From Eledone cirrhosa (lineage: Eukaryota), in assembly GCA_964016885.1 (NCBI GenBank), contig OZ024750.1, positions 50,220,001 through 50,284,000 of the forward strand: a DNA stretch of 64,000 nucleotides, read 5' to 3'. The position numbers were made by a program, and so were the translations under genes. The notes beneath the pieces were generated by a model. That model searched no databases. It worked only from the letters and a program-made list of their open reading frames with translations, and had not been told where the DNA came from. Positions 11,204 through 61,800 of this stretch are shown piece after piece. How positions within the stretch are numbered: position 1 is the stretch's first letter; each line of letters opens with the position of its first letter.

Positions 11204-11950
11204 AAAGAAATACACAGATACATGCGAACAGATACACATACATGAATATATCCACTTATATCCCTGAATTTGTGGTGCCAACCTCAACCGTTGTTGCTCT
11301 ATGAATAACTGGGACTAACTAATCCGAATGGATTAGATTGAATCAGTATCAAAGCTATATAATGCATTATAAAAAAAGAAGAAACATTAGATCTTTCTTT
11401 ATAATGTATTATATAGATCTGATACTGAATCAAGCTAATCCATTCGATTTATTTTGTCCCAGTTATTCATAGAACAACGGTTGAGGTTGGCACCACAAAT
11501 TCAGGGATATATGTGGATATATTCATGTATGTGTATGTGTTCGCATGTATCTGTGTATTTCTTTAGATTGTTTTTAACTCCCTACGTTAGAGTAACCATT
11601 GAAGTGTAGTGACTGCTGGAAAGCTATCATTACTCAAATTTCTCGCCATTCTAGCCATCTCTTCTACGGCTTTGATATAAGTATCCCCTCCGCCTGTGCG
11701 GTAGTTTTTCTTGGCTGTAACAGGCTTAGCTCTGTTTCTTGACCGCTGTATCACGTGATTGACTCCCGCTCCGCCTTTCGGGATTCTATCTCGCGTCCTA
11801 CGTATGTGTTTTGAAACTCTAAATATGGTATCCTCTTGATAAGTCGGCAAACCTCACAAAAATACTGTATCTCTGTGAGCAATGAAGGAATTTGGATATG
11901 GTATACCTTATTAATTATATCTAATGTTTCTTCTTTCTTCATAATGTATT
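11204..11950 (+). mobile_element. Non-autonomous HHR-family element (592-bp unit family), copy 1, with inverted arm and 3' half of HHR deleted
   Basis: 11205-11390 is the reverse complement of about 11395-11563. Homologous to 55066-55715 and 60589-61671. Confidence 0.8.
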
Positions 11951-11994
11951 ATATATATATATATATATATATATATATATATATAATTATATAT

Positions 11995-14515
11995 AGGGAA
12001 AAGAAATCCAGTATACAGTTTTTCAACAACAACAACCTTAAATTAGAAATCGAGAATAATTACAAAATTGTTAACCCCTTAGATGTAGCTTTAAACCTTA
12101 GCTCAGGTGTCTATTATCCTTTCCATAAAATTAATGAAAATCTAAATTACGTAAGCTTCAATTCTAATCATCCTAGAAATATAAAAATTACTATTGTCAA
12201 TAGTGTCCAGCTACGAATTTCTTGCATCTCAGCTAATAAAAATATTTTTGATAATAAGCCAGAATATTACATTGAGGCGTCAAATGGAGCTGGATACTCG
12301 AATAAAATTAAATACTTAGATAATAATAAAATACTAAATCATTCCAAAATTCACTATAACAATAATAATAACCAATTCAACTTAAATAGTAAACCAAAAA
12401 AAAAAACTAGAACTAGAAATATTATTTGGTACTCCCCCCCCATTCTCATTAGGTGTTAAAACACCTGAGGCAAAAATATTTTTCAAAGCACTAGATAAAT
12501 GTTTTCCTAAAGCCCACATATGCCACTCTATTTTAACAGACATACTATCAAACTATCTTACTCTACTACTATGAACATAGCACACAATATAAATAGAATT
12601 AATAATAGAAACTAAAATTTAAACCGCAACCAAACAAACCAGGATAACAATAATAATATTTCTAATAATAATATTCATACTAATAATAATAGTACCGTTT
12701 CTAATAACAACTCCCGAAAATGTAACTGTGTAATTGAATCAAACTGCCCTTTACAAAACAATTGCTTAGATAAAAACTTAATATATAAATGGACCTTAAA
12801 AACTAGAGACAAAATATTTAACTATATAGGTGCCACTTCTACAACATTCAAAGAACGCTGGTATAATCACAAACATACAATTAATAGGTCCGATAAAAAA
12901 TCTTCCACATCACTTTCACATTTAAATTAGTATTTAAAGGACAATACTATAGACTATTCAATATCATGGGGAACTATTTTGAAAGCACCCGCATACCGAC
13001 GATATGGCTCTCTCAAGAATCTGTCATTTATGTATCGAGGAAATGTGTTATATACTTAACTGTCAAAATTCGATTAATTTAAAAAATGATTTATTCAGTT
13101 CTTGCAGACATCGCCAAACAACCACTTTCCGAAGTATTTTTAATCTATCATATTCATGACACATGGCTACATCTTATATGTCTTTACACTGCTTCTGTTG
13201 TTTCGTGATGTTTTTTTTAAATGATCTTTTTCTTCTTAAATTAATATTTTTATTAATGATATTCTTTTCCTAATGATACTCTTCTTAATGTATTTTTAAA
13301 AGATTGATACTTTTTAATTGATATTTTGAATGATATCCTCTTTACGATAGTTTTTTCTAAATGCACTCTTGACTTATCTAATAATATTTTTTTTTCTTCT
13401 GTTAATTCTCAAACTTTTCACACATCTATCGACGTAGATAGTATCAAAATACATATATAATTGAAATTCTCATCCTTGAAAACATTTAAAATAAAATACC
13501 TTATAATCTCACACAAATTAATATATAATTTTCTCTACATATTATCCGCATTTTCTGAGAAAATTATTCATTAAATCTAACATTAATATTTTAACAAATA
13601 ATATTGGAGTCATATTTTCCTTCACAATTGAGCAAACATGGACATAATAACTTGTATGTTAAATTCTATATAACTTCGCCAACTTAATAATAATTTTCTG
13701 ACAATATTTTCAATTTTTTTATGAAACTATTTGAATGTACAAAACCTTCTTCTCTTAAATTTTGTATTACGGCTTTTTTCTTAACTATATATTTAAAATC
13801 TAAACTCAACATCCTTCATAACTTATGTTAGAAATGTAAACAAATTAATACGTGTGTTATATATCTATAAAATATAACAGCATATAAATCAGCAATAATA
13901 TTTATATTTATATATTTATTAATCTATATTAATTCTATTTATTAATTACAAACTGTTGTAATATAATAAGATAAAATGTACTTACAACCATAATTCTTCA
14001 TATAATCTAATTATAATGATTATATATATAATATTATAATTCATGATTTATATAAATATTTAGTTATATATTTTTTAAATTCTGGATTGATATTCCACCA
14101 CTTCAACAAACTTTTAATTTTTAAAGTATCAATTTCTAAATTCACGTACTCTGTAATACTATAAATATAAGCTTCTCTTTCTTCTTCCCACACATATCTC
14201 CTAATAATTATTCAATCTACCTAGCGTCTAAAAATCACGATTTCTTCAGGCCTACGCTTCAACTTCATTTGCATATTTATCAAAATAATTTGAAATATTT
14301 GTTTTTTTCCTTTCTTCCCCTTTTCCCTCTTTCCTTTCACTATCCAGACGGAACTTGAACCATTAAGGTCTGATTCCTGGGTAGGTCACTATTTATAAAA
14401 CAATCTTTGTATTTTAATTGATAAGAGCGTACCAAAGTGTTCGTACCCTTGAAATCTAAACTATAATAAAGTAAGGGGCGCGAGACTACGTACGGTTTAT
14501 AATTATTTATCCCAT
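11995..14515 (+). mobile_element. Degraded 5'-truncated Penelope-like element (RT thumb, GIY-YIG, long AT-rich 3' UTR, pLTR)
   Basis: VNPLDVALNL..YYPFHK..SNHP..IIWYSPP, then frameshifted CNC..CPL..CL..LIY..YIGATSTTFKERWYNH (12721-12870). Same motif layout as the intact element. Confidence 0.9.
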
Positions 14516-15455
14516 TAGTAAAATAAGTTGGATTACTTTGAATAAATGATGAATAAATATTACATAATTTATCTAGTAAATTCCGTGGCTGTTGATTAAA
14601 TATATTTTGTTTATTTAACGATTCATTTTAAAATTTCTGAAATGTTAACACTTCCGGTTGGCCATCGCTTAAATAAACATACTAATTTTTTGTCACTAAT
14701 TTTCTCCTAATGCAGTTTATATATAATATCGTATTTTTTTAATGTATCATGGATTACGTTACTGATTACATAAGACAGTGTAACGCAGTCTTCGTTCAAT
14801 ATCTGTGGATATTGTCAATTACGATGTTATCTGATCATATCTACATGCATATATACCTGCGTATAATATCAATATAGACACTACACATGCTAGCAGAAAA
14901 CCACCCGTAGATATTCTTGTGATCAATTAAATTGTATTATACATATTTCAGAGGTACTGAACTATGTTCAACAGTACGTCCTCATCAGATAAAATAAAAT
15001 GATACATGACATACCCTGACATGGTAGATGGTTAAGATTTAATCAAGGTAGTGATTAACTTATGAGAAAACTCAATATTTATACCCTAATATTGAGAACA
15101 TGAGAGAACGTAATACAATCAATAGAGAGTGAGTGAGAGTAATATATCTTAAGAAATACATGGCATCAATGTAACAGTTATAGGAAAAACTACTAGAAAA
15201 ATATGCGGGAGAAGAAAGAATAGAGGAAGACGTAGGTGAAGTTATAACGTATTTAGCTTGAGAAGACAAACGAAAGATAAATTAAGAGAGAGAGAGAGAC
15301 AAAGGGGAATAATTTATGCTCAAGTTTCTACACATATTCATATAGGGTTGGCGGTTAATCTTCAAAATATTTCATTTATGTTATTTCATGGTAAATAATC
15401 AAATTATAGGTTTTAAAAGTTGATGGGTATTTGTATTAATATTATAATATAATAA

Positions 15456-15645
15456 GGCGGTGGATTGGCAGTATCGGTAGAGGGTCGGACGCCATGCTTT
15501 CCAGCATAGTTACGTCCCTTTACGATCTGAGTTCAAATCCCGCCGAGGTTGACTTTGCCTTTCATCCTTACGGGGGCGATAAAATAAAGTACCAGTAATG
15601 AACTGGGTAATTGCTGGCCTTGTGCCTAAAGTAGAAACAAATATT
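15456..15645 (+). mobile_element. Deu/Nin-domain SINE, full length
   Basis: GGCGGTGGATTGGCAGTATCGGTAGA..GAGTTCAAATCC..GCCTTTCATCC..TAGAAACAA. TSD ATATTATAATATAAT. Confidence 0.92.
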
Positions 15646-60498: not shown

Positions 60499-60588
60499 TA
60501 TATGTGTATATGTATATATATATTTACACACATATATATATATATATATATATATATATATATATATATATATGTGTGTGTGTGTACA

Positions 60589-61671
60589 ATATATTTAGAA
60601 ACACACAGATACAAGCGGACACACACATATACATGAATGCATCCACATCCAACCGTGAGTTAATGGTGCCAACCTTACCGATGTTGCTCAATGAATGACT
60701 GGGACAGACCAATCCGGTTTAACTAGACTGAACTAGTATCAGAGTTAAAAATACATTATGAAGAGAGAAGAAACATTTAGATATAATTAGTAATAAAATG
60801 TATCATACAAAACTGCTCCTAGATTCCTCGACTACGTAGTTTCGTGGCATAAACAAAAACAGTACATCATAAAGATATAGAGCCTTTGCGAAGTCTGCCG
60901 ACTTATCAAGAGGATACCTCATGATAAGTCGGCAGACCTCGCAAAGGCTCTATATCTTTATGATGTACTGTTTTTCTTTATGCCACGAAACTACGTAGTC
61001 GAGGAATCTAGGAGCAGTTTAGGTATGATACATTTTATTACTAATTATATCTAAATGTTTCTTCTCTCTTCATAATGTATTTTTAACTCTGATACTGGTT
61101 CAGTCTAGTTCAACCGGATTGGTCTGTCCCAGTCATTCATTGAGCAACATCGGTAAGGTTGGCACCATTAACTCACGGTTGGATGTGGATGCATTCATGT
61201 ATATGTGTGTGTCCGCATGTATCTGTGTGTTTCTAAATATATTGTTCATAACTCCCTCTGGTCGAGTAATCTTTGAAGTGTGGTGACTGCTGGAAAGCTG
61301 CTATTACTCATATATCTCGCCTCCTTTACCACCTCTTCTACGGCTTCGATATAAATACCCCCTCCGCCTCCGTGGTATTTCTTCGGGGTTATAAGAGGCT
61401 TAGCTCTGTTTCTCGACCGTTATATCGCGTGACTATCTCCCCCTCCTCCTTTTGGGATTCTTTCTCACGTCGTGTAGACGCGTTCTTGAAGCTAGTAAAA
61501 TGAGGTATCCTCTTGATAAGTCGGCAGACCTCGCAAAGGCTCTATATCTTTATGATGTACTGTTTTTGTTTATGCCACGAAACTACGTAGTCGAGGAATC
61601 TAGGAGCAGTTTAGGTATGATACATTTTATTACTAATTATATCTAACTGTTTCTTCTCTCTTCATAATGTA
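60589..61671. mobile_element. 592-bp unit family, copy 3: inverted arm + 1.27 tandem units, three HHR motifs
   Basis: TGATAAGTCGGCAG at 60922 and 61514 (592-bp period). 60589-60908 mirrors 60922-61243. Confidence 0.88.
61508..61597 (+). ncRNA. Hammerhead ribozyme with U3:A8 core and long stem II insert (inverted copy 60825-60914)
   Basis: tcctc-TTGATAA-gt c ggca..tgcc ac-GAAA-c tacgta g-TC-gagga. Confidence 0.75.
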
Positions 61672-61700
61672 TATATATATGTATATATATATATATATAT

Positions 61701-61800
61701 AACGGAAGAAATGAGGTAAGGAACCAGGTGGACCGTAACGCACCAAAGAATTATCCGTCGAGACGGCTTGAGCTCAGCCGTCGTGGTCCTACTCGTTCCT
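61701..61800. repeat. 100-bp inverted fusion of two ends of the 25641-25829 family
   Basis: 61701-61747 is the reverse complement of 25781-25828. 61747-61800 matches 25699-25748. Confidence 0.8.

Follow-up and report, generated by a model that had tools for sequence, protein, structure and literature searches.

How do Penelope-like elements (PLEs) build tandem and inverted insertions that carry a tail on one side only? This is stated to be an open problem (PMC8557442), and it is raised eight times over by one stretch of the 3.0-Gb genome of Eledone cirrhosa, the 64,000 nucleotides (nt) from 50,220,001 to 50,284,000 of contig OZ024750.1 (hereafter the window). Eight head-to-head inserts lie there, each with one arm ending at a near 3' site (the short site), one arm ending at a far 3' site (the long site), a central junction of its own and microsatellite on both sides. 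They are ends of Hydra-clade PLEs, together with a non-coding 592-nt hammerhead repeat, in (TA)n. Their architecture, which had been picked out in an earlier annotation of the window (the original prediction), is a sharper version of a known PLE feature and is both real and general. We propose that the element's enzyme probably nicks both strands of the TA repeat and that the two free ends prime reverse transcription (RT) on a single source RNA, each from a hairpin-marked site of its own. The proposal builds on that architecture, the strict pairing of the two ends, the Hydra open reading frames (ORFs), hairpins 7–11 nt 3' of the start sites, TA-like bases at those sites, and arms that overlap and share variants.

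We refer to the window families as A (the 592-nt hammerhead repeat), B (inserts near 46k and 59k), C (near 25.7k and 61.7k), D (near 58k) and E (an intact 8.7-kb palindrome at 30831–39524). A further family, Neptune-like and with a GIY-YIG domain, was assigned to its clade by its linker motif only.

Pairing of short and long ends

The original prediction had suggested tallying the 3' ends of both arms across the genome. We sampled the first matches on chromosome C1, unselected, taking 60 of the 69 clusters for family E and, for every further family, its first 30 matches. Both ends were resolved in 110 of 171 sampled insertions (E, 35/60; A, 15/21; B, 17/25; C, 17/22; D, 15/24; Neptune-like, 11/19). 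All 110 paired a short end with a long end, with neither short–short nor long–long pairs, where random pairing would have given about half. Another 15 inserts, 12 fetched for spacing and three bystanders, followed the same rule, for a total of 125/125. The remaining sampled loci were single arms, were broken, or had a partner outside the fetched stretch. Several single-armed E copies keep a 6–10-nt remnant of the opposite end type (L078, L083, L120).

Genome-wide counts for family E point the same way: 1084 of the 2305 exact matches before the short site read through it, and 939 exact long ends adjoin TATA, which is close to 1:1. One short pattern per family gave exact genome-wide matches numbering 2305 for E, 326 for A, 8292 for B, 28,646 for C, 904 for D and 23,552 for the Neptune-like family. 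The tail, which separates the two sites, measures 167 nt in E, about 165 in A, about 97 in B, 80 in C, about 84 in D and about 57 in the Neptune-like family (window 27173–28311; L248 2324–3801; L289–L318).

Two chimeric inserts were seen: in L138 (1275–1548) a family A short arm stands head to head with an arm from another hammerhead family, whereas L134 (1049–1727) switches template from C to A. L150 also looked like an A/C chimera and turned out to be two separate inserts.

Relationship between the arms

Arm statistics were taken from 34 family E inserts; L065 was excluded because one of its arms has sequencing errors, and L072 was left out of the junction statistics for its complexity. The long arm runs past the short site in 26/34, so the 3' region is duplicated, unlike in L1 twin priming, and the original prediction was right to separate the two. 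The short arm extends further 5' than the long arm in 20/34, and the long arm lies entirely within the tail in 8/34. Both classes call for two primings rather than the fold-back of one complementary DNA (cDNA) and, with the 110/110 pairing, they support the idea of two fixed 3' ends primed from both strands. A pile-up of long arms at the short site itself (L082, L087, L102) was too weak to retain, at 3/34 against a rough expectation of about one.

At 11 of 43 short ends, the terminal 7–9-nt unit is present in one to three additional copies, the pattern that an RT which slips and re-anneals at initiation would leave. Two long ends also stutter (L067, L109). The central junctions contain no TA between the arms and differ in position between loci. 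Microhomology of 0–15 nt was found in 27/34 and inserted bases in 7/34; in 12 of the 27 insert-free junctions the microhomology was at least 4 nt (0.7 expected), in keeping with the claim that the cDNAs are joined at variable points.

A single priming followed by fold-back self-priming of the cDNA, or on an antisense template as proposed in PMC3846280, might give an inverted insert as well; endonuclease resolution at the TA-like short site would then produce the second end, as PMC8557442 suggests for the tail. The published proposals apart, this would account for near-identical arms, for TA-like bases at both ends that an endonuclease could cut, and for junctions at natural palindromes, which were found in the window element, in L105 and L113, and in most family C inserts near hammerhead stem II. 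However, a cDNA begun at the long site cannot yield a short arm that reaches further 5' (20/34), and one begun at the short site cannot yield a tail-only arm (8/34). Stutter at both end types resembles initiation rather than cleavage, and in PMC11167929 both tail borders were mapped to RT starts. Fold-back is disfavored for at least 20 of the 34 insertions, and we consider it improbable.

The two arms of an insert also resemble each other. Over 17,762 overlapping nt, family E arms share 307 variants relative to the window copy and are discordant at 80, many of which come from two deletions. In the five overlaps longer than 1 kb, an insert's own arms were 0–0.3% apart, whereas the nearest arm from any other insert was at 0.3–0.6%. 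Across 22 clean E insertions, the distance between the two arms never exceeded the median distance to other copies, and the arms stop no more than 35 nt apart in 8/34 (1.3 expected; 0 of 20,000 permutations). We lean toward one source RNA over two on these data.

Priming on two RNAs is the nearest competitor: an asymmetric complex would hold the short-site hairpin of one RNA and the long-site hairpin of another, and the cDNAs would then be joined. The overlap of the arms (26/34) would need no strand displacement, the two-family chimeras L138 and L134 would follow easily, and a two-mRNA dual priming has been proposed for L1 (PMC2837659). Yet an extra rule would be required to produce 125/125 short–long pairs. 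The identity of family E copies to the window element spans about 84–100%, and two RNAs would not be expected to leave 0/22 clean insertions with arms beyond the median distance, or arms that stop together above chance. We rate it as unlikely. The original prediction had left the choice between two RNAs and a tandem or circular RNA; our lean is to a single source, with one two-family chimera (L138) that points to two.

Target-site duplications (TSDs) of 13–15 nt were found in 4 of 50 scored pairs, from families E, C and D with imperfect TA flanks, against 0.41 expected from shuffling (maximum of 3 in 2000 shuffles); of 76 pairs tried, 26 did not fit the end patterns used for parsing. These TSDs span the whole inverted insert, and their geometry is the one that leaves two 3' overhangs.

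It also matters whether the inserts are artefacts or after-effects, that is, independent insertions piled up in one microsatellite, segmental duplicates descended from a single palindrome, or fold-back errors introduced when long reads were assembled. Insertions concentrate in TA tracts, and adjacent families share tracts in the window (58813–58908 and 61670–61701). One arm of L065 has sequencing errors, and L249 and L250 resemble related loci. Against this stand the TA-free junctions that differ by locus, arms whose asymmetry is not expected of fold-back reads, non-random pairing in six families, and TSDs that enclose the whole insert. The unique flanks of six window loci (three of family A, two of B and the family C locus near 25.7k) share no sequence, bar one overlap of test intervals; they are thus not segmental duplicates, and the independence claimed for them stands. 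This explanation is largely refuted, and we give it hardly any weight.

Hairpins at the start sites

The original prediction had placed the two ends at defined positions downstream of a hammerhead. A generic hammerhead scan returned only four sites and overlooked known ones, so predicted motifs were placed with hand-written patterns, which succeeded in all five families. Among the best 150 of 167 Rfam rows (E ≤ 1) there was no hammerhead, only microRNA-type matches below the gathering score that were driven by microsatellites and hairpins. Variant predicted cores were seen in E (CCGAAGA, 39438–39484), A (U3-A8, 61508–61597) and D (CCGGAGGA, 58591–58681).

Measured from predicted cleavage, the short site lies at +44 in E (+47 if an ATA common to the target is counted), about +78 in A, +55 in B, +16 in C and +52 in D, and the long site at +211, +243, about +152, +96 and +136, respectively. 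The asymmetry described for the intact element is therefore correct, while the offsets vary between families from +16 to about +78 and from +96 to +243. In addition, 33 of 34 family E short arms pass the predicted cleavage site (only L063 stops just 3' of it), which also led us to reject cleavage as a 5' limit. Taken together, the family-dependent offsets and the arms that run through the cleavage site indicate that the hammerhead does not set the ends.

What tracks the ends instead is a hairpin. In copies that read through, each start site is followed by TA-like bases and then, 7–11 nt downstream, by a hairpin (10/10 sites) made of RCTC, an inner stem-loop, a 2–3-nt bulge and GAGY; the closing pair is G-C in six sites and A-U in four. 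The hairpins at the long sites of C and D were predicted first and then found by gapped search, with one consistent sequence each (405 and 8 matches). A loose version of the motif occurs about once per kb in element bodies. In family E, the hairpin behind the short start site (GCTC...TT-GAGC) lies at 35332–35365 on the forward strand, with a mirror copy at 30991–30958, and the one behind the long start site at 35498–35514, also forward, 20 nt before the ATG.

The motif can be recognized by eye in published consensus sequences of Hydra ends from a coral, a sea cucumber and a sea louse. Among Hydra-type ORFs on metagenome contigs, 57 of 78 loci had a usable upstream window; 42 of these 57 windows contain the motif, 26 of them at least twice, compared with 22/285 ORF windows and 5.3% of shuffles. 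The Neptune-like family lacks the Hydra hairpin; TATCG is repeated after both of its start sites instead.

A proposed route of insertion

Our proposal, on the sequence evidence above, would run as follows. Staggered nicks some 13–15 nt apart would leave two 3' overhangs in the TA repeat. Two RT active sites, probably those of a dimer, would bind the two hairpins of one transcript, which would be an uncleaved tandem or a circle formed by re-ligation between two hammerheads. Because a copy whose 3' end is at either site has no long-site hairpin there, a template with the whole ORF upstream of both hairpins implies a multi-unit tandem or a circle. Each overhang would anneal through 2–6 nt of TA homology, often slip and restart as telomerase does, and then extend. 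The cDNA from the long site would cross the short site by strand displacement. The two cDNA 3' ends would be joined, through microhomology or by end joining, and each would prime second-strand synthesis on the other. Family A, whose 592-nt repeat has both hairpins, is likely copied in trans.

PLEs are the sister group of telomerase. The most specific version of our proposal is a programmed two-ended priming, in which a dimer sits on two homologous hairpins of one circular or tandem transcript, each nicked strand has its own start, and slippage is telomerase-like. We put this version forward tentatively, as a possibility that we would not quite favor over its denial.

Arms longer than one unit were found in L080, L108, L109 and the window, and some arrays hold two to four units; both observations are compatible with a tandem as well as with a circle. 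Family C arrays of at least four units with a spacing of about 3540 nt (G000:C1:91476611-91487269 and 437200341-437210965) fit rolling-circle copying or tandem sources.

Several points weigh against priming of both strands on one RNA. Two RNAs can evidently be used, since L138 combines arms from different families and L134 contains both C and A sequence. The variants that arms share might also have arisen through gene conversion in the palindrome, through polishing of the assembly or because a single locus supplied two transcripts. Natural palindromes are a frequent site of symmetric junctions, and this could also suit two RNAs or fold-back. In vitro, the Poseidon PAc enzyme used both starts alike on both strands and started without target homology (PMC11167929), behavior that does not predict strict pairing. 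In L121, L218 and L300/301 a long arm is accompanied by an arm that crosses the short site, its end unseen. TSDs were found in only 4/50, most flanks being pure TA and thus uninformative. Finally, the short hairpins are weak (−0.8 to −17.1 kcal/mol), and the metagenome Hydra ORF loci are partly redundant.

The strict pairing and a duplicated, movable RNA signal make the PLE insertion problem testable on an element that is young and apparently intact. If both strands are indeed extended at programmed RNA sites, this would be a retrotransposon route that makes both junctions by priming, which would interest those who study RT evolution and those who design genome-writing tools. Under the programmed version, the two-hairpin rule alone would account, across PLE clades, for the tail, the partial tandems and the inverted pseudo-long terminal repeat (pLTR), and the hairpins would be the cis handle by which retrozymes borrow the enzyme.

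Elements behind the inserts

Self-comparison and the raw sequence placed the ends of all eight inserts no more than 9 nt from where the original prediction had put them. The family E palindrome is an intact head-to-head element with its long end at 30831 and its short end at 39524. Its left arm (30831–35268, reverse strand) ends at the long site and its right arm (35251–39524, forward strand) at the short site; the arms are 99.8% identical and the monomer is 4199 nt (35326–39524). The inversion junction (35251–35268) is an 18-nt natural palindrome that corresponds to stem II of the predicted hammerhead. A type I hammerhead-like motif lies at 39438–39484 on the forward strand, with predicted cleavage after 39480 and a mirror copy at 31084–31038.

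The right arm encodes an 819-amino-acid (aa) protein (35535–37994, forward strand) with RT and C-terminal GIY-YIG-type regions; the mirror copy at 32528–34987 (reverse strand) has one codon fewer. The protein carries RWR at residue 38, HADKT at 121, QFDI, TMGSSD, YRDD, a C-terminal YVG region, CNCRANRTC at 678 (the CxCx5C linker), CNLC at 776 (CxxC) and CQH at 804 (CxH). The Hydra clade is described as having an RWK-type motif, DKT in place of DKG, CxCx5C, CxxC, CxH and insertion into (TA)n (PMC8557442), and the match of motifs and target to that definition places the element in this clade. It has a single ORF with RT followed by GIY-YIG, the RWK/DKT motifs, the linker and endonuclease motifs, a pLTR hammerhead motif and a (TA)n target. 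The monomers of E (4199 nt), B (4097 nt) and C (about 3540 nt) exceed the usual length of under 3 kb, which is a tendency of the clade and not a strict criterion. Full-length relatives of the protein are 31–40% identical to it, and it resembles Hydra-1_Obim and Hydra-1_Ajap in a comparison made by eye only. The ORF had no Pfam match, and Pfam gave no useful match for the B and C ORFs.

The original prediction had counted three families. Two of those three and the 58k insert (B, C and D) are not separate non-coding families but truncated 3' ends of other, autonomous Hydra ORF elements, whose proteins are 38–55% identical to the window protein over the matched stretches; the full elements are 4097 nt in B and about 3.5 kb in C. 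Family D was also considered as the end of a Neptune-like ORF in L248, but that ORF is a nested insertion and D runs into a Hydra ORF. Family A is a non-coding tandem repeat whose units are spaced 592 nt apart in L131/132 and in the window; it contains no element-derived ORF of at least 120 aa.

The three family A inserts are at 11204–11949, 55058–55717 and 60587–61671, with junctions that differ as claimed (about 11392, 55339 and 60918). In the first, the long arm is 11204–11392 (reverse strand), and the right arm (forward) crosses both sites and ends short at 11949; its hammerhead is partly deleted and its long-site hairpin is at 11577–11593. The second has a short arm at 55058–55339 (reverse) and a long arm at 55339–55717 (forward), with U3-A8-core hammerheads at 55220–55128 and 55387–55479; the end given earlier as 55066 is the inner edge of the motif, the other family A ends being within a few nt of those described. 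The third has a long arm at 60587–60918 (reverse) and a 754-nt right arm (forward) that exceeds one unit and ends short at 61671, with hairpins at 61086–61145 and 61251–61267 and its hammerhead at 61508–61597.

The family B insert at 46139–47711 has its long arm on the left, its short end at 47711 and a hammerhead at 46339–46287, and the one at 58908–59444 has its short arm on the left, a symmetric junction near 59128, a hammerhead at 59244–59296 and a short-site hairpin at 59353–59392. Family C is represented by 25641–25828 (short arm left, long arm right, short-site hairpin 25756–25779) and by 61702–61799 (48-nt tail-only long arm left, short arm right). The family D insert, 58129–58812, has a short left arm, a long right arm, a hammerhead-like motif at 58591–58681 and a short-site hairpin at 58735–58759. 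The inserts generally abut microsatellite, mostly (TA)n, as first reported; the exceptions are 11204, set off from TA by 8 nt, 55717 and 60587, which adjoin (TG)n, and 59444, which adjoins (TC)n before TA.

Other loci show how such ends are reused. L245 and L246 have clearly different Hydra ORFs with the same family C terminal module, which suggests that elements may exchange ends. L028–L030 hold an inverted array of a 509-nt family E deletion derivative that retains the hammerhead, both hairpins and the ORF start and has short and long ends; this is a retrozyme-like repeat in the making. In L135, L136 and L145, an element that we take to be Helitron-like (TC start, hairpin, CTAG end) sits at the same point of family A, the short site, and is either a passenger or targeted.

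The window also holds unclassified inverted repeats, several of them TA-flanked (18676–19064, 10754–10862, 47828–47952, 24188–25530 and 28312–28544). The stretch at 53765–54044 resembles another two-armed PLE end insert, with a single-arm relative at 2535–2612. A dispersed repeat of 190 nt has at least eight copies (6505–6702, 9393–9585, 15452–15645, 17519–17701, 23937–24129, 28957–29157, 45677–45873 and 53291–53499) and is probably a short interspersed nuclear element. The stretches at 11815–12456, 16661–18282, 40740–41285 and 49700–51812 hold degraded pieces of Hydra-type ORFs, another GIY-YIG fragment and a disrupted RT region of the long interspersed nuclear element type (weak RVT_1 match).

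Comparison with known systems

The inserts are not the new kind of mechanism that the original prediction had proposed. Insertions of endonuclease-containing (EN+) PLEs are known to have an inverted 5'-truncated pLTR and a one-sided 'tail' (PMC3846280, PMC8557442), and two RT starts with extension of both strands have been obtained in vitro (PMC11167929). The Eledone inserts share with EN+ PLE insertions a head-to-head copy, partial tandems, a tail at one end (an inverted 5'-truncated copy with a one-end tail was found in 125/125 resolved inserts), junction palindromes, TSDs (8–10 bp there, 13–15 nt in the Eledone pairs) and, in the Hydra clade, (TA)n targets (PMC3846280, PMC8557442). The published tail is 'optional', 30–40 bp long and ascribed to endonuclease resolution or antisense self-priming (PMC3846280, PMC8557442), a length found in none of our six families. 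In contrast, Eledone tails are 80–167 nt (57 in the Neptune-like family) and paired one of each in 125/125, with both borders before a hairpin or repeat, and the hairpin is conserved in the Hydra families.

A literature search that had subscription papers and picture-only supplements outside its scope returned no statement of strict pairing, of this hairpin or of dual priming as a cause of PLE inversions, and no description of tails of 57–167 nt. Within that literature, the pairing, the tails and the RCTC-stem-bulge-GAGY hairpin are additions to the published PLE architecture.

Poseidon PAc offers the closest biochemical parallel. In vitro, two internal RT starts bound the tail and both strands are cut and extended; the template is uncleaved RNA and a dimer is predicted (PMC11167929). 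PAc shows no strand difference in its starts and no target homology, and it starts in an AC-rich stem-loop inside the ORF, whereas in Eledone the starts precede the ORF, show TA homology and are strictly paired. The available text on PAc draws no link to inverted insertions (PMC11167929).

In L1 twin priming and the dual priming proposed for L1, both 3' overhangs also prime RT, and inverted arms joined by microhomology or end joining lie inside TSDs (PMC2837659). Twin priming uses the poly(A) end and a variable internal site and the part between is deleted (PMC2837659), whereas the Eledone sites are fixed and internal and the arms duplicate sequence (26/34 overlap); a TSD around the whole insert is shared (4/50).

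Animal non-LTR (long terminal repeat) retrozymes, described as PLE derivatives, are non-coding, tandem, type I hammerhead repeats of 51–972 bp (bioRxiv 10.64898/2026.07.22.740005), and family A, at 592 nt, fits that description. It differs in that its insertion marks and two hairpins tie it to the Hydra machinery.

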